A DNA stretch of 64,000 nucleotides from Pomacea canaliculata (Eukaryota): NCBI RefSeq assembly GCF_003073045.1, contig NC_037595.1:8572345-8636344 (forward strand), in the 5' to 3' direction. The notes under the pieces are model-generated. The model made no database searches and was not told the DNA's origin. It saw nothing but the letters and a program-made list of their open reading frames with translations. Below are positions 546 through 15,994 of this stretch, one piece after another. A program made the position numbers and the translations under genes. Positions within the stretch are counted from its first letter, which is position 1. The number at the start of each line of letters is the position of its first letter.

Positions 546-2923
546 GTCAGGGCTGTGATCCTGTTTCGCGGCCATACCTGAGATTGTCATTTTGATTTTT
601 GAAATTCATATACTACGGAGTGATTTTTAGGCCTTGGTGGTCCGCCATATTTTGTACTTAAGTAAAGTGGTCCGTGGTCCGAAATACTTTAGAACCATTG
701 GACTAGGCGTTGGACCGGTTTACTGTGCCTACCCGGACACGCAAACACGCAAAACACAAAACACGCAAAAAGACTTCTTACACTCCGTACCTGGTTGTGT
801 TGGTATCGATCAGTGAAGAAAGAATAGGTGAACAGCAACTAATTTATGTTATCCATACACGCATTCTGAAAACTTTCCTCACTCACTCTCTTTCGTTATT
901 CACGCTCTTTCATCTGTTTTTTTTTTAAATATCATTTTCTCGCTCTAGCTATAAACTTCATTTTTTTTAAATTATAAAATGCGAATGAAAAAAAATCCCC
1001 CCCCCCCAGGGTCCCATATATAATGCCTTATCCAACTTGGTTAAGTGGCGCGAACATCAAACAACTGCCACACACAAACTCATTACTAATTTCATTACTA
1101 ATAAAATGAAATATTAAGAAGGCTGCAAGAAATCTGCGTAACAGCATGTGAAGAAAGCCTAATGTCTGCACTGAGAGGACATTTTGTCCAAAACAACAGC
1201 AACCTTCTCATAACTCCAAGACACACTAACTGCATATACAGTAATCTAATGGCAACTGAAACCAATCCTACAGAAATAGTTCTGAGAGGAGATTCTCAGA
1301 TCTAGATTTTGAGAAGCCTTTCATGTATTTGTTAACTTGTGCTCTAATCCTTCTCTGATGAGCGTGGTATTCTGCATTGCATTTGGACATGGAATTAATA
1401 AATAAATATTATATTTACTTTAGAGTATATATATATATAAGTTAAATAAACGTTCTGTATTGTACGTACATATCGGTTCCCTGTGCGGGGATGTATCGTC
1501 GCTATCCGTCTGCAAATAATTTTAAAAAAGTCTTAATTAACGTGTCTAGGCATCCATATGAGTGTGGGTACATTAAATGAACTGAACCTGATCCTAAAGA
1601 AAAAATTTTGCACTTGGCTTGTACTTCAAACTGACCAGAAGCCAAGCTTTTTTTTATAAAAAATAAAGACATTATACATGTGCATATTTTAACCTACTAT
1701 TATAAGAACACCCATATAACACACCAATGATTTATGGAAGACAAGCAGAGTAGAAAATAAGACTACCAAATTAAAACTGTCACAAAGAAAGCAAAAAACA
1801 GAGATCCCTATCTCCACAGGCAGACAGTTGATGAGAGATTTCTTCAAATTAAAAAAGTATTAGATTTCATCCTTCTTTTGATTCTTTTTCCCCTCTTGGG
1901 GAGGGGAGGATCCCTACCCCCGGGAGATGGCTCATCTATGTTTATCTGCAAATAATTTAAAAAAGACTTAATTAATGTGTCTAGGAGGCGGGCGTGAATT
2001 CTCCTGCTCTGGTGACTGTAATGACTGCTCTTGGTAATTGTCTGCTGTTGTGAACGGAAGTGTTTCTCAACAGTATTTACACACAGGGTGTGTATTTTCG
2101 ATCAGTTCTAATTGCATGAAGTCCCTTTTGGGAATTATTGTTGTCCTCTGTTGACTGGAAGTGTTTTTGAACACTTCTTACGCATACAGCGTGTATTTCA
2201 AGCTCCAATTTCATGAGCTCCCTTTGTGGAAGCTTTTTAATTATGCTGGTTATCACCTGAAAAAACATTCATATAAAATGGCGATTCTTTTCGTCTTTTG
2301 AATACAAATTTAGGTACGTTCAAAATATATATATATACTGAATAAGAAAGCGATCCTGTTTCGCGGGCCTACCTCTAAATCTTACTGTAAGGATTTTTCT
2401 GGCGGCGCAGGTAGCTCTTCTCCTCCGGCCGAAGGAAGCTCTTCTCGTCCGGCCGAAGGTAGCCCTTCTCCTCCGCTATCACTTTGCCCGGCGGTTGCAG
2501 AACCACGTCGTTGTCGTTGTCGATATATGATTAACACTTATATTCCCAATTCCACAATCCTAAGGAATCAGCACCCTTCCATTTCAGATCTAGTTACATA
2601 CAAATATCATCATACACAGAAGGAGGTCAACAACACTGAAAGCATACGAAAACTTTTTTCAACTCTAGGAAAAAAAACAAACTATGTGTACCAAGCTACC
2701 TTCTAAATGGCATACAAAAGTAATGTCATACAGAGTTAACCTTTCCTATTGTAGAATCAAACTGCAATTTTTTTCAGCTGTTGTGCATTTTTAAATATCG
2801 TTGCATTTTCTTTTTATACCTTACAAGATTAATATTTTGTGATCCACTGTGTACATATTTCTTGCTTTGCTTCATTTAATAACATATCTATAATACCGAC
2901 AACTCTCGGAATTACATTTCCTC

Positions 2924-3257
2924 CTACCTCCTCGGCTTCTTTTCCTGTCTGCGCCTCCATGCTTTGCGGCGGTTTGCAAACCATCTCTGGAAGGAAGAAC
3001 CACAATGTTAATACGTGTCTCTGAAATCAGGGCTGTTTAGTTAACAACTAGTGGACTAGGCGTTGGACTGATTTACTGCGCCTTCCCGGACAGTGGTTTC
3101 TGGCAGTCCAGTCCTTCTTTCCAGCGCTTCGCGGTCAGCCACCCCGGGTAGCGATTTCTTCGGAATTCCCTTTCCAGGGTGCGCAGCTGGTCAGGCCGGA
3201 ATTGTATCCGTGGCCTTCGCACCCTCTGTGGCTGTACACGAGCGCTGTCGGTGGGTC
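2924..3257 (-). CDS. Type D paired-like homeobox gene (partial; no ATG in this exon). Exon 1 at 3082-3257, ~95-nt intron at 2987-3081 with a GC rather than GT donor, exon 2 at 2924-2986.
   Basis: Minus-strand translation gives '..PTDSARVQPQRVRRPRIQFRPDQLRTLEREFRRNRYPGWLTAKRWKEGLDCQKPLSGK' followed by 'RWFANRRKAWRRRQEKKPRR*'. These are the canonical PRD-like helix-1 motif 'QL..LE..F..NRYP' and the helix-3 motif 'WF.NRR.K.WR+R'. An acceptor 'gtgtgtcgcag|GACC' lies just upstream, so a 5' exon is expected. The helix 2-3 region is one residue longer than canonical. Confidence 0.55.
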
Positions 3258-5099
3258 CTGCGACACACGGGCAGACAAGGCGTCAGGATATGTGTAGATG
3301 AATAAGATGTAATAAGACGCCACTTAAAGAGGCTTGTTTATCCAATTTTTCTTTCTTGGGTCTCAGGAAGGGGAGATGAAGCTTTTTCGGCAGCTTGATA
3401 TTGAAGCACGGTTTGGTGGCATATTTGTTGTTCTGGCCTTAACGTCACAATTGTGAAGCTGTCCTGCCAGTCTCCACCCCCAAGTCCCTGACGCGCTTCT
3501 AGAGTTGGATAAATTTCTTGCGAGGACGCTAACATGTTTAGTTTGCTACTGTCATCTTGCACCAGTTGCATGTGATCACACCACGAACTCTACACACTTT
3601 CAGATTTTAGCGGTAAATCTTGGACAAGAATTACGAATGCTGAAAACATAGAAACAAATAGAAGAGTCAGATCTCTCAAGAAAAGCACTTACTAAACAAA
3701 AGATGATGAAACATTTATTGACAACTCACACTTATAGTCTTTAGGTAAAGAAACAATACAAATAAAACAGAAAAAATGCAAAATAAGTCAGGGAAGACGT
3801 TTACACAAAAGATGGTTATTGATGCACATGTTTAAGTACTCACGTGGTTCTGGTTCCGCCTGCTCTCGCCGGAAAAGCTAGGACATTTGAGCATGCGTAC
3901 GCGATCGAACCAGAGCTGTTGCTCCGGTCCAAATCGAACGGATTCTGAAATGATACAAGTAGTGTAACTCCATAACTTCATTTTTCTGTTGTCTCCTCAT
4001 ATTACGTTAGCTTTTCTAGTTTAAACAACTAAAAACACAAACAAACAAAATTATTACTTATGCTTAGAATATCATTTTAGGGACAATTAAATGTTAATTC
4101 TGTGACAAGTCCTTTTGAAAGGGAATAAATCGTATCTCCACACTGAAGTGAAGCATTCCGGTCCTCCCACTTATGTTCCGAATTCGAGTTAAAAACGATA
4201 ATTATTAATTCAAACTCTAAAGACTGAGGTTTTTTAAATCTATCGTCATAAGAGATATTAGCATATGAAAATGTAGTAAGGGTTCCACCGCAGTGAAATG
4301 TACTTTTACTCACATATTCAGAAATGGCATTTTTATCCTGGCTTCAATCTTTCCACTCTTCCAGCTACAAGGCTCTCTGGGCAATGTACAGTAATCGTTA
4401 TACTTCATTTTTACGTCATTCATACAGGCAGTGCAGTTTATTCGTAATTTGATTGCATTGACATATATCATATCAAGCGGCAGATGCATTTGACAATATT
4501 CTGGAACATTTTTTCCATACAACTAGTCCATATCTCTCTGACCTCAGACATACAGGTTTTCGAGAAACCTTAGCCAGATTTAGACGAATCTTGTGTCATA
4601 AATTTAGGTACTTTAAACAGCAGTTCTCTATGCAATTTGTTATATTACTGTGATGAGATCTACTGGGAACCAGCTGTACCTGTCTTCTGGGGAGGGGCCG
4701 TTGGCTCTCTCGGATGAGAAGCATTGAATTTCTTTAAAAACTCGTAGCATACATTATGTAGCTTCATGTGGATATCCAATAAAATCTCCTCAGGTAAAAC
4801 TTCAGTGATAGATCTAAGAAGTCTGAAGAAATGCCTGTTTTCTTTCTTTTTCTTTATCCAATTCCTCCCCCCTCCCTTGGGTAGGGAAAGACCACTCCCC
4901 CCTATCACAGGGGGTAATGTACATATTAGTGCACTCCCATCCATCCCTGTGTACAATATCTCCCACACACACGTGTTATCAATTTAATTAATTCACTGTC
5001 CTTAATAGTATCTTTACAAATCGAGCTAATCTGCTTTTCATAGCTTACAAGAGTGATGCAGCTCAATGTCTTTTTAGATTCCAATAACGCTTCGTTGCG

Positions 5100-5142
5100 A
5101 ACCAGCGCTGGAAAGGAAGAACCACAATGTTAATACGGTCTC
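5100..5142 (-). pseudogene. Degenerate homeobox exon-2 fragment ('RWFATKRYWNLKRH*') with a truncated intron element
   Basis: Minus strand shows 'ttcctttccag|CGCTGGTTCGCAACGAAGCGTTATTGG...TGA'. This is homologous to the type C exon 2. Homeodomain N51 is replaced by T/K. Confidence 0.4.
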
Positions 5143-5979
5143 CTTGTAGTGCTGTAATAATAACGTCGCAGCCGTTTTCGATATATGATTAACACATATA
5201 TTCCCAATTCCACAATCCTAAGGAATCACCACCCTTCCATTTCAGATATATTTACATACAAATATCATCATGCACAGAAGGAGGTCAACAACGCTGAAAG
5301 CATACGAAAACTTTTTTTGAACACTAGGAAAAAAAATTATGTGTACCAAGGTACCTTCTAAATGTTATACAAAAGTATGGAAGTCTGGAAGGTAGAACCA
5401 GAATATTAATACGTGTCTCTGAAGTCAGGGCTGTTTAATTAACAACTAGTGGTCTAGGCATTATAACTGTTTACTGTGCCTACCTCGACTTGTTTTTGAG
5501 ATAGTCGGGTTCTTCCTGCGAGGGTTTGTCTGCTTGATACTGGAGGAAATTTGCATTTTTTGAAGTAATCCTCCAATATCTTTTTTTGCCACCTCTTGAT
5601 ATTTCTTCGCCGGGGCCTCCGTCTGGCCGGTGGTTCTGTGATATGAAGGTGCAGCCAAGGCTTCAGGATGTTTGTAACGTTTTAGGAAGAGTGTGTTAAA
5701 TGTGTATGCGAGCGTGTGTGAACATCTACATGTCAACCACGCTCACCGCACTCTTTCACCTTTCACCTCTCGCGGACACATACACGCACACAGTTTTCTT
5801 ATTATTATGTCATTCATATAAAATGGCGATTCTTTTCGTCTTTTGAATACAAATTTACGTACATTCAAAAGAAAAAAAATATAGTGAATACGAAAGCGAT
5901 CCTGTTTCGCGTCCCTACCTGACAGAGTTATTTGGATCTTTTTGGCTTTTCCTCTTTTTTGAGGACGGGCGTCAGCAGC

Positions 5980-6159: not shown

Positions 6160-8640
6160 CGTCGCCGCCGCCGTTGTCGATATATGGCCTACCTCTCAAT
6201 CTTACTGTAAGGATTTTTCTGGCGGCGTAGGTAACCCTTCTCCGGCCGAAGGTAGCTCTTCTCCTCCGCCATCACTTTGCCCGGCGGTTGCAGAACCACG
6301 TCGTTGTCGTTGTCGATATATGATTAACACATATATTCCCAATTCCACAATCCTAAGGAATCACCACCCTTCCATTTCAGATATATTTACATACAAATAT
6401 CATCATGCACAGAAGGAGGTCAACAACGCTGAAAGCATACGAAAACTTTTTTTGAACTCTAGGAAAAAAAATTATGTGTACCAAGGTAACTTCTAAATGG
6501 CATACAAAAGTAATGTCATACAGAGTTAAGCTTTCCTATTGTAGAATCAAACTGCAATGTTTTTAAGCTGTTGTGCATTTTTAAATATTGTTACATTTTC
6601 TTTTTATACCTTACAAGATTAATATTTTGTGATCCACTCAGTACTTGTACATATTTCTTGCTTTGCTTAATTTAATAACATATCTATAATACCGACAACT
6701 CTCGGAATTACATTTCCTCTGACCTCATCGTCCTCGAGGTCATTCATTGTTGTCTGCACCGCCTTTGGGCCCTGCTGTTTCAAACCATCTTTCAATGTGA
6801 CGCCTGGACAGGCCTGTACGTCGTGCAAGTGTTGCTCTGGTTGAACGTCGGGGAAATTTCGTCTGCTAGAATTGGTCTTCCAAAATTCTCCTTTGCCATG
6901 GTTGTATTCTTCTTATTATTATTATTGATCTTCTTCCGGCTGGTGGTTCTGCGAAATGAAGGGCAGACAAGGCTTCAGGATGTGTGTGTCGATGAATAAG
7001 ATGTAATAAGACGCCACTTAAAGAGGCTTGTTTATCCAATTTTTCTTTCTTGGGTCTCCAGGAAGGGGAGATGAAGCTTTTTCGGCAGCTTGATATTGAA
7101 GGACGGTTTGCTGGCATATTTTATGTACTTGCAGATGGAGATCTTGAAGAATCTCCACTGGAAGTGTTGAAGTCAGACTTTAGCGGTAAATCTTGGACAA
7201 GAATTACGAATGCTGAAAACATAGAAACAAACAAAAGAGTCAGATCTCTCAAGAAAAGCACTTACAAAACAAAAGATGATGAAACATTTATTGACAACTC
7301 ACACTTATAGTCTTTAGGTCAAGAAACAATACAAATAAAACAGAAAAAATGGAAAAATAAGTAAGGGAATACGTTTACACAAAAGATGGTGATTGATGCA
7401 CACAACTCGATCACTCACTCCAGAGCCTGTTAAAGTACTCACGTGTTTCTGGATGGGCCAATGGCTGAAGTAGTAGTATTTTTAAGCAGAGTAACGCTTC
7501 ACTGTCTCATAGACGCTAAAAATTAGCTAAAATATTAGCTGAGACAGAATTGCACACTAAATTGTGACGAAACGAGGCGGTGTAATTCAAACTCTGAAGA
7601 CTGATGTTTTTTAAATCTATCGTCATAAGAGATATTAGCATATGAACATGTAGTAGGAGTTCGCTCTCACTTTCCACTTACGCCGCAGTGAAATGTACTT
7701 TTACTCACGAATTATTATTTGGTATTGCTGTGGGAGCTTTTTCGGCCTGCCTGCCTGCCTCCAGATATCGTCCTCACGGTACCTCGCTCTTTGTTACGTC
7801 ATTCATACACGCATTCTGAAAACGTTGGTCACTTACACTCTTCCGTCATTCACGCTCTTTCATCCTTGCACGCGCGCTCATTCCTTCCACGATATAAAAA
7901 TGTTAGAGGGCATTTTATTCGTAATTTGATTGCATTGACATATATCATATCAAGCGGCAGATGTATTTGACAATATTCTGGAACATTTTTTCCATACAAC
8001 TAGTCCATATCTCTCTGACCTCAGACATACAGGTTTTCGAGAAACCTTAGCCAGATTTAGACGAATCTTGTGTCATAAATTTAGGTACTTTAAACAGCAG
8101 TTCTCTATGCAATTTGTTATATTACTGTGATGAGATCTACTGGGAACCAGCTGTACCTGTCTTCTTGGGAGGGGCCGTTGGCTCTCTCGGATGAGAAGCA
8201 TTGAATTTCTTTAAAAACTCGTAGCATACATTATGTAGCTTCATGTGGATATCCAATAAAATCTCCTCAGGTAAAAACTTCAGTGATAGATCTAAGAAGT
8301 CTGAAGAAATGCCTGTTTTCTTTCTTTTTCTTATCCAATTCCTCCCCCTCCCTTGGGTAGGGAAGACCACTCCCCCTATCACAGGGGGTAATGTACATAT
8401 TAGTGCACTCCCATCCATCCCTGTGTACAATATCTCCCACACACACGTGTTATCAATTTAATTAATTCACTGTCCTTAGTAGTATCTTTATAAATCGAGC
8501 TAATCTGCTTTTCATAGCTTACAAGAGTGATGCAGCTCAATGTCCTTTTCGTTCCCAATAGCGCCTGGTTGAGAACCAGCGCTGGAAAAGAAGAACCACA
8601 ATGTTAAAATACGTGTCTCTGAAGTCAAGACTGTTTAGTT
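6160..8640. repeat. Copy 2 of the ~3.6 kb tandem segmental duplication
   Basis: Same blocks as copy 1. Copy 2 carries the intronless homeobox version (see 6795-6960). Confidence 0.75.
6795..6960 (-). pseudogene. Intronless, frame-disrupted paralogue of the type D/B homeobox (degenerate homeodomain)
   Basis: The minus strand reads '..IQPWQRRILEDQF*' and then, in a shifted frame, 'RRNFPDVQPEQHLHDVQACPGVTLKDGLKQQGPK', continuing straight into the exon-2 homologue (AGATGGTTTG...). The ~95-bp intron present in the paralogue at 2987-3081 is absent here. The WF/N51 positions are degenerate. Confidence 0.5.
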
Positions 8641-9250: not shown

Positions 9251-9317
9251 GAGAAAAAATCAAAATATAACAACTAATCATCAATAAAGCATAGTCACCA
9301 CAAACCAATTCACCTCA

Positions 9318-9576: not shown

Positions 9577-10070
9577 CTACTTTGGGAATTCTGATCCGTA
9601 TAGGAGGGTGCTGATGACAGTTGACTGGAAGATTCTCAGCTTGATCTTCTTACTGATGTTTGTTGCCTTCCATGTGCTCCTGAGTGAGGCACGTCTGTTG
9701 GCGAACCACCTCTGGAAAGGAAGAACCAAAATGTTAAAACGTGTCTCTGAAGTCAAGACTGTTTAGTTAACAACTAGGACTAGACACTGAACCTGTTTAC
9801 TGTACCTACCCTAATAAAATCTTTTTCAAATGAGTGTTTCGTGATAGGTCTGCGAGGACTTTTGGTGTTACATACTGATTTTTCTTAAATTCTTTCTTCA
9901 GCCATCGTCGAAGAGTTCGTCTTGGTTGTCGTCTTTGCGGTCTGTTCTGTTGTGGTCTAATTAATTGTCGCTGCTGTCTCTCTATTTCTGGCTGTTGATG
10001 CTGGTGTCCAACAAGCCACCTCACGCCTGCTCTTAATGCGTCGTACAATGCCCGAAGGCAAAATTTCATC
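9577..10070 (-). pseudogene. Type A homeobox copy, frameshifted. Exon 2 at 9577-9711, intron, exon 1 at 9806-10070.
   Basis: Exon 1 reads 'MKFCLRALYDALRAGVRWLVGHQHQQPEIERQQRQLIRPQQNRPQRRQPRRTLRRWLKKEFKKNQYVTPKVLADLSRNTHLKKILLG*'. Relative to the intact copies it has a 3-residue deletion in helix 1 and a 1-nt deletion that places a TAG at the donor. Confidence 0.6.
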
Positions 10071-10872: not shown

Positions 10873-11366
10873 CTACTTTGGGAATTCTGATCCGTAAAGG
10901 AGGGTGCTGATGACAGTTGACTGGAAGATTCTCAGCTTGATCTTCTTACTGATGTTTGTTGCCTTCCATGTGCTCCTGAGTGAGGCACGTCTGTTGGCGA
11001 ACCACCTCTGGAAAGGAAGAACCAAAATGTTAAAACGTGTCTCTGAAGTCAAGACTGTTTAGTTAACAACTAGGACTAGACACTGAACCTGTTTACTGTA
11101 CCTACCCTAATAAAATCTTTTTCAAATGAGTGTTTCGTGATAGGTCTGCGAGGACTTTTGGTGTTACATAGTGATTTTTCTTAAATTCTTTCTTCAGCCA
11201 TCGTCGAAGAGTTCGTCTTGGTTGTCGTCTTTGCGGTCTGTTCTGTTGTGGTCTAATTAATTGTCGCTGCTGTCTCTCTATTTCTGGCTGTTGATGCTGG
11301 TGTCCAACAAGCCACCTCACGCCTGCTTTTAATGTGTCGTACACTGCCCGAAGGCAAAATTCCATC
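10873..11366 (-). pseudogene. Type A homeobox copy carrying the same frameshift and deletion as the 9577-10070 copy
   Basis: Exon 1 at 11102-11366 reads 'MEFCLRAVYDTLKAGVRWLVGHQHQQ...HLKKILLG*'. Exon 2 at 10873-11007. The two copies share their lesions. Confidence 0.6.
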
Positions 11367-11903: not shown

Positions 11904-12396
11904 CTAGTGTTGGCGCCTACGAATTGCGGCACGCCTGTTGGTAAACCATGTCTGGAAAGGAAGAACCAAAATGTTAACACGTGTCTCTCAAGTCAAGACT
12001 GTTTAGTTAACAACTAGGACTAGACACCGAGCCTGTTTACTGTGCTTACCCTTATCCATATATAACTCAGATGGGTATGTCTTGAAATAGTGGCGACGAC
12101 TTCTGCAGTCGCATATTGATTTATATTAAATTGATCTTTGAGGATGGTTGACTGCCATGGTTTAAGTATTTGTCTTCTAGGCTGTTGTCTTCTTCTTTGA
12201 TTACGTATTCTGGGTTGTTGATTTCTTCGTCGTCTTTGTCTTAGATTTAAGATGTTCTAAGTCTTCTTTGTCTTTGTTCCTGTCTCCTTTCTCGTCTAAT
12301 TATTTGTTGATTGGCTGGCTGTTGTTGGCGATGCCAATGACGTATTGAATTCCGGCTTTGACAGCTTGGAAAGCAGCTCTGAGGATGTATTCCATA
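11904..12396 (-). pseudogene. Type B homeobox copy with a frameshift in exon 1
   Basis: This is 95%+ identical to the intact type B gene at 14213-14710, but has a 3-nt deletion (cttcttcttc becomes cttcttc) and a 1-nt deletion (atgcccaatgacg becomes atgccaatgacg). No ORF of 60 aa or more is called here. Confidence 0.6.
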
Positions 12397-13198
12397 CTGA
12401 AATGATAAAGCAGAATGAGTGGAGTCAGTGAGCTGGTGTACGGAAAATTTAGTTTTTACACGTTTATTTTGTGTAATTCTTCAATGGGTTAACTCGTACA
12501 AATTAAAAAAAATGTTCAAAATCAAAAAAATCAAATCAAAACAAACTTTATGTCTGTCGAGGATACCCAGGACAGAAATTTGTCTTCGCTCACAAGGGCA
12601 GCATACATATACAGACATTTAAGACACAGCAGTAAAACTAGAAGTGCATCTACTTACCTCTAGTTAACTAAGTAACTAAACACAGTAAACACACTACACC
12701 TTAAAAAAGATAAAATGTAGAAAATACATTTTCTACATCACCCCTTCCTCCGGGGGAAAAATTGTGCCTGCTAAGGCACAATTTTTTCGAAAATACAAAT
12801 CCATCGATAGCCAAAACGATTAGTACACATGCCCAAATGTATAGCACAGCCAAAAATCAAAATATAACAACTAATCATCATAAAGCATAGTCACCACAAA
12901 CAATTCACCTCAAAAAAAAAATAAATAATAATGTGTTGCTAAGACTACTCTACATAATCGGGCATTGTCTGTTCACACGTACAACCATCTCCTCGAGATA
13001 AAAATGTGCGTTTTACACAGCCTGTCCAACAATCTGTTTCATGCAGCAGTAAAGGCCCTTTTTTTTCACACCTGCCTAGTCACAGAGGCTCTGACACTTT
13101 AGCCGTGCCGGTTTATAATCTTCTCTTTTTGCTGTTGGTCACGTGCCGGTTTATATTCTTCTCTTTTTGCTGTTGGTCACGGTGCCTTGCTTCGTATG

Positions 13199-13714
13199 CT
13201 ACTTTGGGAATTCTGATCCGTATAGGAGGGTGCTGATGACAGTTGACTGGAAGATTCTCAGCTTGATCTTCTTACTGATGTTTGTTGCCTTCCATGTGCT
13301 CCTGAGTGAGGCACGTCTGTTGGCGAACCACCTCTGGAAAGGAAGAACCAAAATGTTAAAACGTGTCTCTGAAGTCAAGACTGTTTAGTTAACAACTAGG
13401 ACTAGACACTGAACCTGTTTACTGTGCTTACCTTAATAAAATCTTTCTTGAGGTGAGTTTCTTGAGATAGGTCTGCGAGGACTTCTGATGTTACGTACTC
13501 GGACTTCTTAAACTCTCTCTTCAGCATTTTCTTTTGCCATCGTCCAAGAGTTCGTCTTGGTTGTCGTCTTTGTTGTCTTTGCGGTCTGTTCTGTTGTGGT
13601 CTAATTAATTGTCGCTGCTGTCTCTCTATTTCTGGCTGTTGATGCTGGTGTCCAACAAGCCATCTGACGCCTGCTCTTAATGCGTCGTAAACCGCCCGAA
13701 GGGAAAATTCCATC
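13199..13714 (-). CDS. Type A PRD-like homeobox gene, intact. Exon 1 at 13432-13714 with ATG at 13713, 98-nt intron, exon 2 at 13199-13333. ~138 aa.
   Basis: Exon 1 reads 'MEFSLRAVYDALRAGVRWLVGHQHQQPEIERQQRQLIRPQQNRPQRQQRRQPRRTLGRWQKKMLKREFKKSEYVTSEVLADLSQETHLKKDFIK'. Donor is AAG|GTAAGC, acceptor is ttcctttccag|AGGTGG. Exon 2 reads 'RWFANRRASLRSTWKATNISKKIKLRIFQSTVISTLLYGSEFPK*'. The homeodomain is a perfect 60 residues with R5, L16, F20, Y25, L40, I45, W48, F49, N51 and R53, and the intron sits exactly between residues 46 and 47. An acceptor lies immediately 5' of the ATG (tttatcatttcag|G ATG), suggesting a non-coding 5' exon. Confidence 0.7.
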
Positions 13715-14212
13715 CTGAAATGATAAAGCAGAATGAGTGAGTCAGTGAGCTGGTGTACGGAAAATTTTAGTTTTTACACGTTTATTTTGTGTAATTCTTC
13801 AATGGGTTAGACTCGTACAAATTAAAAAAAAAATGTTCAAAATCAAAAAAATCAAATCAAAACCAACTTTATTGTCCGTCGAGGATACCCAGGACAGAAA
13901 TTTGTCTTCGCTCACAAGGGCAGGCATACATATACAGACATTTAAGACACAGCAGTAAAAACTAGAAGTGCATCTACTTACCTCTAGTTAACTAAGTAAC
14001 TAAACACAGTAAACACACTACACCTTAAAAAAGATAAAATGTAGAAAATACATTTTCTACATCACCCCTTCCTCCGGGGGAAAAATTGTGCCTGCTAAAA
14101 CGACAACAGAATAACAACAGAACAAGAACAGTAAATCCACACACACCACCCTGTGAAATATCCATGCATATACATTCACTCCTCTGCCTTACAACAGTGA
14201 TGGCCAACCTTG

Positions 14213-14710
14213 CTAGTGTTGGCGCCTACGAATTGCGGCACGCCTGTTGGTAAACCATGTCTGGAAAGGAAGAACCAAAATGTTAACACGTGTCTCTCAA
14301 GTCAAGACTGTTTAGTTAACAACTAGGACTAGACACCGAGCCTGTTTACTGTGCTTACCCTTATCCATATATAACTCAGATGGGTATGTCTTGAAATAGT
14401 GGCGACGACTTCTGCAGTCGCATATTGATTTATATTAAATTGATCTTTGAGGATGGTTGACTGCCATGGTTTAAGTATTTGTCTTCTAGGCTGTTGTCTT
14501 CTTCTTCTTTGATTACGTATTCTGGGTTGTTGATTTCTTCGTCGTCTTTGTCTTAGATTTAAGATGTTCCTAAGTCTTCTTTGTCTTTGTTCCTGTCTCC
14601 TTTCTCGTCTAATTATTTGTTGATTGGCTGGCTGTTGTTGGCGATGCCCAATGACGTATTGAATTCCGGCTTTGACAGCTTGGAAAGCAGCTCTGAGGAT
14701 GTATTCCATA
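14213..14710 (-). CDS. Type B PRD-like homeobox gene, intact. Exon 1 at 14359-14710, intron, exon 2 at 14213-14260. ~132 aa.
   Basis: Exon 1 reads 'MEYILRAAFQAVKAGIQYVIGHRQQQ...QPRRQILKPWQSTILKDQFNINQYATAEVVATISRHTHLSYIWIR'. Exon 2 reads 'TWFTNRRAAIRRRQH*'. The homeodomain is 60 residues and aligns with the canonical homeodomain without gaps (F20, N23, Y25, T27, L40, I45, W48, F49, N51, R52, R53). Position 50 is T. The intron is at 46/47. Confidence 0.75.
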
Positions 14711-15487
14711 CTGAAATGATAAAGCAGAATGAGTGAGTCAGTGAGCTGGTGTACGGAAAATTTTAGTTTTTACACGTTTATTTTGTGTAATTCTTCAATG
14801 GGTTAGACTCGTACAAATTAAAAAAAAATGTTCAAAATCAAAAAAATCAAATCAAAACAAACTTTATTGTCTGTCGAGGATACCCAGGACAGAAATTTGT
14901 CTTCGCTCACAAGGGCAGGCATACATATACAGACATTTAAGACACAGCAGTAAAAACTAGAAGTGCATCTACTTACCTCTAGTTAACTAAGTAACTAAAC
15001 ACAGTAAAACACACTACACCTTAAAAAAAGATAAAATGTAGAAAATACATTTTCTACATCACCCCTTCCTCCGGGGGAAAAATTGTGCCTGCTAAGGCAC
15101 AATTTTTTCGAAATACAAATCCATCCGATAGCCAAAACGATTAGTACACATGCCCAAATGTATAGCACAGCCAAAAATCAAAATATAACAACTAATCATC
15201 AATAAAGCATAGTCACCACAAACCAATTCACCTCAAAAAAAAAAAAAAATAATAATAATGTGTTGCTAAGACTACTCTACATAATCGGGCATTGTCTGTT
15301 CACACGTACAACCATCTCCTCGAGATAAAAATGTGCGTTTTACACAGCCTGTCCAACAATCTGTTTCATGCAGCAGTAAAGGCCCTTTTTTTTCACACCT
15401 GCCTAGTCACTGAGGCTCTGACACTTCAGCCGTGCCGGTTTATATTCTTCTCTTTTTGCTGTTGGTCACGGTGCCTTGCTTCGTATG

Positions 15488-15994
15488 CTACTTTGGGAAT
15501 TCTGATCCGTAAAGGAGGGTGCTGATGACAGTTGACTGGAAGATTCTCAGCTTGATCTTCTTACTGATGTTTGTTGCCTTCCATGTGCTCCTGAGTGAGG
15601 CACGTCTGTTGGCGAACCACCTCTGGAAAGGAAGAACCAAAATGTTAAAACGTGTCTCTGAAGTCAAGACTGTTTAGTTAACAACTAGGACTAGACACTG
15701 AACCTGTTTACTGTGCCTACCTTCATAAAAACTTTCTTCAAACGAGTGTTTCGTGATAGGTCTGCGAGGACTTCTGATGTTACGTACTGGGACTTCTTAA
15801 ACTCTCTCTTCAACATTTTCTTTTGCCATCGTCGAAGAGTTCGTCTTGGTTGTCGTCTTTGCGGTCTGTTCTGTTGTGGTCTAATTAATTGTCGCTGCTG
15901 TCTCTCTATTTCTGACTGTTGATAACGGTGTCCTAGAAGCCACCTGACGCCTGCTCTTAATGCGTCGTACACTGCCCGAAGGCAAAATTCCATC
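15488..15994 (-). CDS. Type A PRD-like homeobox gene, second intact copy. Exon 1 at 15721-15994, exon 2 at 15488-15622.
   Basis: Exon 1 reads 'MEFCLRAVYDALRAGVRWLLGHRYQQSEIERQQRQLIRPQQNRPQRRQPRRTLRRWQKKMLKREFKKSQYVTSEVLADLSRNTRLKKVFMK'. Donor is AAG|GTAGGC. Exon 2 is identical to the 13199 copy (RWFANRRASLRS...LLYGSEFPK*). Confidence 0.7.

Follow-up and report, generated by a model that had tools for sequence, protein, structure and literature searches.

A LINE reverse-transcriptase fragment as the predicted C terminus of a tandemly duplicated homeobox gene of Pomacea canaliculata

RESULTS AND DISCUSSION

A homeobox gene with a LINE-derived 3′ end

The predicted type A homeobox protein of Pomacea canaliculata ends in a tail that, to judge from its sequence, is a captured piece of a LINE reverse-transcriptase (RT) ORF used as coding sequence. 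The gene belongs to a minus-strand tandem array of short two-exon homeobox genes lying at approximately 2.4–16 kb of the window, by which we mean the whole stretch of 64 000 nt that was analysed. The window is A+T-rich (32–42 % G+C), and just two ORFs of at least 130 amino acids are present across its 64 kb. The chimera is a fresh example of a known phenomenon, the capture of a transposon fragment into coding sequence, which is a recognized route to new protein termini, although few of the known examples come from LINE ORF2 or RT. Both breakpoints are fixed here to within a nucleotide or two, with an un-rearranged paralogue alongside, and the fusion falls inside the DNA-recognition helix, with the result that residues which would ordinarily touch DNA are of LINE origin. 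The features discussed below are listed in Table 1.

Table 1. Coordinates, within the window, of the type A gene A3, of its LINE-derived fragment and of related features
Feature	Position	Strand	Description and basis
A3 exon 1	13432..13713	-	94 codons; N-terminal motif, Q/R-rich linker and homeodomain positions 1–46; direct reading, Pfam
A3 intron	13334..13431	-	98 nt, GTAAGC...TTTCCAG; separates homeodomain positions 46 and 47
A3 exon 2	13199..13333	-	Predicted product RWFANRRASLRSTWKATNISKKIKLRIFQSTVISTLLYGSEFPK, then stop
Homeobox-derived start of exon 2	13313..13333	-	RWFANRR, homeodomain positions 47–53; aligns with type B through CGTGCC
LINE-derived fragment of A3	13211..13312	-	ASLRSTWKATNISKKIKLRIFQSTVISTLLYGSE, 34 codons, sense, in frame; blastn, nhmmer, tblastn, DUF6451, custom profile
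Terminal codons of A3	13199..13210	-	FPK and TAG stop, without LINE likeness; LINE references diverge here
Rest of the type-A-specific block	12820..13210	-	A3–B1 global alignment; only in A units of the window
38 nt tandem duplication	13104..13179	.	CGTGCCGGTTTATAWTCTTCTCTTTTTGCTGTTGGTCA; 3′ flank of A3, also A2; absent in A1 and A4
LINE fragment in A4	15501..15601	-	Exon 1 intact, tail in frame
LINE fragment in A2	10886..10986	-	Exon 1 lesions; tail out of frame
LINE fragment in A1	9590..9690	-	Exon 1 lesions as in A2; tail out of frame
Type B copy B2, exon 2	14213..14260	-	TWFTNRRAAIRRRQH, then stop; paralogue without the fragment, ancestral-like comparison

Structure of the type A gene and its predicted protein

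The product of A3 exon 1 begins MEFSL and ends KDFIK, and the intron that follows has canonical GT..AG ends by direct reading, with an acceptor context common to types A, B and C and also seen at the 2986 copy. Translation of the minus strand from 13196 to 13339 gives FQRWFANRRASLRSTWKATNISKKIKLRIFQSTVISTLLYGSEFPK, a stop and H, and the order of segments in the predicted protein is the homeodomain, RWFANRR, ASLRSTWKATNISKKIKLRIFQSTVISTLLYGSE and FPK, followed by the stop codon. The Pfam Homeodomain profile (PF00046) matches residues 50–105 of the A3 protein with 43.9 bits against a gathering score of 22.9, and the core homeodomain residues W48, F49, N51 and R53 are all kept in both A3 and A4 (WFANRR corresponding to positions 48–53); residue 50 is an atypical alanine. 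An intron between homeodomain positions 46 and 47 is frequent in the PRD class, and its presence in type A is a supporting feature only, since class assignment needs phylogeny. P0205, a hypothetical protein from Pomacea canaliculata, is the sole database relative of the N-terminal region of type A; it is 47 % identical and is not encoded in the window. Type A is best regarded as a lineage-specific, divergent and tandemly duplicated homeobox gene.

The LINE fragment corresponds to codons 101–134 of the predicted A3 and A4 proteins. It supplies homeodomain positions 54–60 (ASLRSTW) together with a mainly hydrophobic stretch of about 27 residues, and the two Pfam matches overlap within it: the homeodomain alignment extends as far as residue 105, which is position 56 of the 57 in the profile and lies in the part supplied by the LINE, and the DUF6451 match occupies residues 103–132.

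LINE origin of the C-terminal tail

Exon 2 alone matches Pfam DUF6451 (PF20049) with 28.9 bits (E-value 1.1e-6, gathering score 28) over profile positions 4–33 of 33. When 5.8 billion proteins were searched with the type A protein using phmmer, the best E-value was 6.6e-7 and six matches to the whole protein were found, all of them confined to the tail and all with DUF6451; the two best are Pomacea canaliculata LINE fragments with 85–88 % identity. A tblastn comparison with the Pomacea LINE protein P0001 gave 88 % identity over 34 amino acids, and blastn against L001, L002 and L003 (two loci in ENA assembly ERZ26696912 and one Tara Oceans contig) gave 79–82 % DNA identity with E-values of 1e-20 to 1e-23. 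A custom LINE-thumb profile scored 53.7 bits on exon 2, its alignment covering exactly ASLRS...YGSE, whereas the maximum reached by approximately 5000 composition-preserving shuffles was 13.8 bits. The near-invariant LINE positions (L, W, K, F, S and LLY) are mostly kept in the fragment, and single variants of the tail are shared with Pomacea copies, P0016 having KST and P0118 having KAT. A LINE origin of the tail is concluded because the Pfam, phmmer, blastn and shuffle scores are far beyond chance. The sequence-only reading had proposed that type A exon 2 is chimeric, with helix 3 fused to a LINE RT fragment, and the searches bear this out, the tail matching only LINE ORF proteins with DUF6451 and the similarity being significant with both profiles.

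It is extremely improbable that the resemblance to LINE RT is an artefact of chance or of low complexity. The segment is just 34 amino acids long, and the whole A3 protein scores 25.7 bits with DUF6451, just under the gathering score, but a coincidence would have to account for the protein identity given above together with a DNA identity that extends over 101 nt and has the same boundaries at three LINE loci, for the first 23 nt past the junction at 13312, which are identical to L001 at 23 of 23 positions, and for a profile score that no shuffle approached, all in a tail whose sequence is not low-complexity. The blastn matches to three LINE loci and the shuffle test rule out this explanation. 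The reverse direction of transfer, in which a LINE captured host sequence, is also ruled out, since gastropods, bivalves and a coral have the motif, in conserved form, inside RT ORFs that are intact. The data likewise contradict the views that the 34-residue motif is older than the LINE family and widespread at homeodomain C termini in related species, and that the matching proteins are host genes lacking RT and APE.

Boundaries of the fragment and the surrounding DNA

The alignments with L001, L002 and L003 each delimit the interval 13312–13212 in blastn, and nhmmer delimits 13312–13211. The first 21 nt of exon 2 (AGGTGGTTCGCCAACAGACGT), which precede 13312, have no LINE DNA similarity, and at the other end the LINE references continue SWK(V/M)TKT where A3 reads FPK and a stop. 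The fusion point is thus at homeodomain position 53/54, within helix 3. The sequence-only reading had placed the start of the LINE sequence after helix 3 and has to be amended on this point, since the LINE begins at ASLRS (13312); its coordinates for the tail, 13199–13290, were right to within 7 nt, TWKAT...FPK lying at 13297–13202 and the stop codon at 13201–13199.

No LINE likeness was found in the intron or the 3′ flank by ungapped comparison, relaxed blastn, a six-frame profile or nhmmer, and a six-frame protein-profile scan from 13440 to 12700 matched only the tail. The check proposed in the sequence-only reading, whether flanking nucleotides also align to a LINE, therefore proved negative on both sides, and an extension of the LINE into the intron or 3′ flank is rejected, all methods stopping at 13312 and 13211; some 40 nt further downstream there is an 8 nt match to the LINE (GTGACCAA), which we discount as too weak. 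Searches of the window with tblastn, hmmsearch and nhmmer found no other fragments of the donor LINE. The A3 segment contains no RT catalytic motifs (e.g. the FADD box), no endonuclease domain and no LINE 3′ end, and we regard it as a LINE-derived fragment and not a LINE copy.

The remainder of the type-A-specific block, about 390 nt, has no LINE, Rfam or tRNA (ARAGORN) similarity, and copies of it were not found in the window outside the A units. That it represents a SINE, a tRNA or a known RNA was considered and rejected, given the lack of Rfam and ARAGORN matches.

Comparison of type A with types B and C

Exon 2 of type C reads RWFSTRRYWERKGH or RWFATKRYWNLKRH before its stop codon, and all paralogues other than type A terminate 7–13 residues past N51–R53, so the earlier observation that types B and C end shortly past helix 3 is borne out (for type B, see B2 in Table 1). 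The A and B forms of exon 2 agree through CGTGCC (13315–13310) and are then unalignable. In a global alignment of A3 with B1, homology resumes at TCGTTTTGGCTATCG near 12819, the unalignable stretch measuring about 490 nt in A and about 137 nt in B. In its 3′ flank, type B is like type C (CCATCACTGTTGTAAGG versus GCATCACTCTTGTAAGC). Because the B flank resembles that of C, and because the other paralogues end so soon after position 53, we take type A to be the derived state.

At the junction a GCC triplet is common to the B-like and the LINE sequence, giving a 3 nt overlap. This microhomology is suggestive only, as an overlap of this kind is expected at about 5 % of random junctions by chance and B is a paralogue and not the ancestor.

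The four type A copies

With tblastn, exon 2 was found in four copies with 100 % amino acid identity (9711–9580, 11007–10876, 13333–13202 and 15622–15491), and the 101 nt LINE part differs by 0–1 nt among them. Exon 1 of both A1 and A2 has a 12 nt deletion in helix 1, corresponding to four residues, and a 1 nt deletion just before the splice donor, which together put exon 2 out of frame and break the homeodomain; the homeodomain–LINE fusion is encoded by A3 and A4 only. The statement in the sequence-only reading that the tail is present in all four A copies therefore holds for the DNA, and as regards an in-frame tail it applies to these two copies.

Divergence among the A copies is 0–2 % in the intron (98–100 % identity), in exon 2 and in the 3′ flank, as against about 10 % in exon 1, where dS is 0.16–0.19 and dN/dS 0.36–0.45. 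From this disparity we conclude that the chimeric 3′ end has been homogenized recently among the A copies, presumably by duplication or gene conversion. Given this homogenization, the four tails count as a single observation, and their identity does not speak for selection.

Origin and status of the chimeric gene

We think it likely that a single LINE-capturing rearrangement produced the chimera and that it was then spread by duplication or conversion, the tail most likely being near-neutral. One rearrangement would have put a block of about 490 nt in place of everything past residue 53 of the homeodomain; the first 101–102 nt of the block are an internal DUF6451 piece of an APE-type LINE ORF, in sense orientation and in its own frame. 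The join would have used the 3 nt GCC overlap, which would fit microhomology-mediated end joining or, alternatively, the 5′ junction of a 5′-truncated LINE insertion accompanied by a target deletion. The block may have come from a dead LINE copy and neighbouring sequence captured during break repair; the other route would be a 5′-truncated insertion with target deletion that was remodelled later. The chimeric 3′ end would then have reached the four copies via tandem duplication and gene conversion. A fragment without RT catalytic motifs would confer no RT activity, and a fast-evolving transcription factor most likely tolerates the tail as a near-neutral addition to its C terminus.

For human L1, 5′-truncated insertions with microhomology at the 5′ junction and with target-site deletion are established. 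Type A is like these in its sense orientation, its abrupt internal start, the 3 nt target overlap and the loss of about 137 nt of target. An insertion made by TPRT is, however, expected to reach the LINE 3′ end, and type A departs from this pattern in that its likeness to the LINE breaks off after 101 nt, with neither a tail nor a target-site duplication.

Three views of the present status of the fusion may be ranked, with the near-neutral extension most likely. Second, and rather unlikely, is that the A subfamily is pseudogenized, the A copies being pseudogenes or untranscribed relics, the fusion protein never being made and the ORF being a leftover of a recent rearrangement. The subfamily as a whole could be decaying, two of its four copies (A1 and A2) being frame-disrupted while carrying an identical exon 2, and in A3 and A4 the complete ORF, the canonical splice sites and the full set of core homeodomain residues argue the other way. 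Homogenization, rather than selection, would explain the identity of the tails, and protein searches with type A exon 1 gave no annotated protein match, yet the dN/dS values of exon 1 are below 1, and the upstream regions and introns are near-identical among units, as expected of maintained regulatory and splice signals. B1 is frameshifted as well, but some of the 1 nt deletions may be assembly errors.

Third, and improbable, is that the tail has been domesticated, the RT thumb piece having become a working C-terminal module of a homeodomain transcription factor. Such a module might be a hydrophobic helix that mediates dimerization or binds a partner, or it might give the recognition helix an altered end and so change DNA contacts at positions 54–58. 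The fragment is sense, in frame and stop-free, although sense orientation and the correct frame would be obtained by chance in one case in six and are thus unremarkable. Most near-invariant LINE positions have been kept, but if the capture was recent these residues can be an inheritance from the donor. The replaced residues 54–60 still score as homeodomain, and a single-sequence AlphaFold model, too poor to be informative at a pLDDT of 50, predicts helices, at low confidence, at residues 90–109 and 115–132; against this, the four A copies count effectively as one observation where selection is concerned, and the frame-disrupted copies carry the same tail sequence. If domestication were true, the tail would be among the few LINE ORF2/RT-derived sequences domesticated into a host protein, rebuilding the end of the recognition helix (54–60) and adding a hydrophobic C-terminal helix.

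The near-neutral extension is our preferred reading of the tail. If it is expressed, the fusion would offer a natural test of the tolerance of helix 3 and of the reuse of an RT thumb helix; if it is not, the locus would simply show a fast-evolving homeobox array in the course of transposon-driven decay. For annotation, it is a warning that RT-like matches can sit within genuine host genes. The chimeric junction was not found when metagenomes were scanned for it with a codon-degenerate pattern.

The donor LINE

In the Pomacea LINE proteins the piece stands in the context ...FAADIALL...KASHSFASLRSTWKAKNISQKIKLRIFKSNVISTLLYGSESWKMTKTISNKL..., downstream of a degenerate FADD box and of the end of RVT_1. 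DUF6451 adjoins RVT_1 on the C-terminal side in retrotransposon ORFs of the APE+RT type, and most of the database proteins that match the tail have RVT_1 directly upstream of DUF6451. When the Pomacea LINE protein was itself used as a query, 170 relatives were recovered, the majority combining RVT_1 (PF00078) with DUF6451. L003 is a near-complete element with Exo_endo_phos, RVT_1 and DUF6451 within about 3 kb; its ORF runs from 2373 to 5345 with APE at the start and RVT_1 and DUF6451 at the end, and upstream of it lie simple repeats alone, without an ORF1. On architecture only, namely a single ORF of about 3 kb with an N-terminal APE, the donor LINE is RTE-like, and the RTE/CR1/L2 label of the sequence-only reading can be narrowed to that extent. 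The same thumb motif also occurs in CR1 and L2 elements.

Among solved structures, a profile of 19 members of the family aligns with the RT palm of R2 elements and human LINE-1 ORF2p, with E-values of about 1e-10 to 1e-8, and the alignment ends just short of the DUF6451 stretch. Since it stops there, the captured piece would correspond to the first part of the RT thumb.

Protein relatives of the donor family with 50–80 % identity occur in Pomacea, Sinanodonta, Saccostrea, the coral Oculina patagonica and Tara Oceans metagenomes, the identity in bivalves and the coral being 60–80 %. The divergence of the donor LINE across phyla is unusually flat, a pattern that would be compatible with the horizontal transfer described for RTE elements. 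Metagenome scans revealed no closer LINE copies, and a full-text literature search for DUF6451 returned no papers.

Comparison with known systems

Coding exons that contain transposon fragments, like fusion proteins of host and transposon, are well documented. Few co-options of LINE-1 into vertebrate proteins have been reported, and a recent example is 'Lyosin', in which exons derived from L1 ORF1 are fused to MYL4 (Kitao et al., 2025; PMC12129022). Lyosin and type A are alike in that a piece of a LINE ORF, sense and in frame, is part of a host protein, or in type A of a predicted one. They differ in that the type A piece comes from the RT region (DUF6451, past the palm) of an APE+RT ORF and not from ORF1, and in that it is just 34 codons long and lies within a constitutive terminal exon, whereas that of Lyosin is a separate, alternatively spliced exon. 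Compared with LINEs that carry RVT_1 and DUF6451 (L003, P0001, P0002 and P0016), type A holds about 3 % of an element.

As regards the homeobox part, novel lophotrochozoan clades of PRD and TALE homeobox genes are lineage-specific and rapidly evolving (Paps et al., 2015; PMC5322547), and eutherian ETCHbox arrays have been shaped by tandem duplication and gene conversion (PMC8208926). Type A is like both in having a divergent homeodomain, a tandem array, pseudogenized members and signs of gene conversion. We know of no member of the lophotrochozoan PRD/TALE or ETCHbox families that ends in a LINE RT fragment.

An exhaustive HMMER scan of 1.84 billion cluster representatives gave 88 matches, each either to the homeodomain region or to residues 100–136, never to homeodomain and tail together; in ten of them scanned with Pfam, DUF6451 was not found. 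The best homeodomain matches are approximately 30 % identical and are multi-homeodomain proteins. Three of these, P0122, P0123 and P0125, have 5–11 homeodomain repeats (e.g. 1433 amino acids with 11 matched stretches, from a Logan assembly); they may be tandem arrays merged into single gene models, or they may be genuine.

Other features of the array

Between 8500 and 16 000, on the minus strand, non-coding DNA of the array is far more conserved than coding DNA. When A3 is compared with B2 (13334–13973 versus 14261–14970), 256 of 259 positions are identical in the 260 nt upstream and 93 of 97 in the intron, whereas exon 1 has about 72 % identity where it is alignable, with large indels, and 36 % identity as protein. 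Conserved surroundings of a diverged exon 1 suggest either that gene conversion has been patchy and has passed exon 1 over, or that selection favours diversity in this exon.

The disrupted copies are located at 9821–10069 (A1), 11117–11365 (A2) and 12050–12395 (B1). Several 1 nt deletions are present in B1, some of them non-coding, and these could be assembly indel errors rather than mutations. Further divergent homeobox copies lie at 2392–3240, 5070–5624 and 6278–7018, and two divergent copies have in-frame stops right after WFCNRRAK (6298–6278 and 2505–2485), followed by Arg-rich repeats; the array is thus larger and more decayed than types A to C imply.

At 9255–9300 the 3′ flank of A1 runs straight into the CAG/Gln-rich middle of a type C exon 1 (9236–9042), and duplication of the neighbouring A unit seems to have removed the 5′ end of this type C copy. 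The 38 nt tandem duplication that is common to A2 and A3 points to a more recent shared history of these two copies. Two adjoining palindromes, perfect or near-perfect, are found at 12718–12737 and 12757–12786 (GTAGAAAATACATTTTCTAC; AAAAATTGTGCC..GGCACAATTTTT), where A–B homology resumes. They recur at every unit boundary, and could mark sites at which recombination or duplication broke the DNA; alternatively, they could form a small inverted-repeat element.
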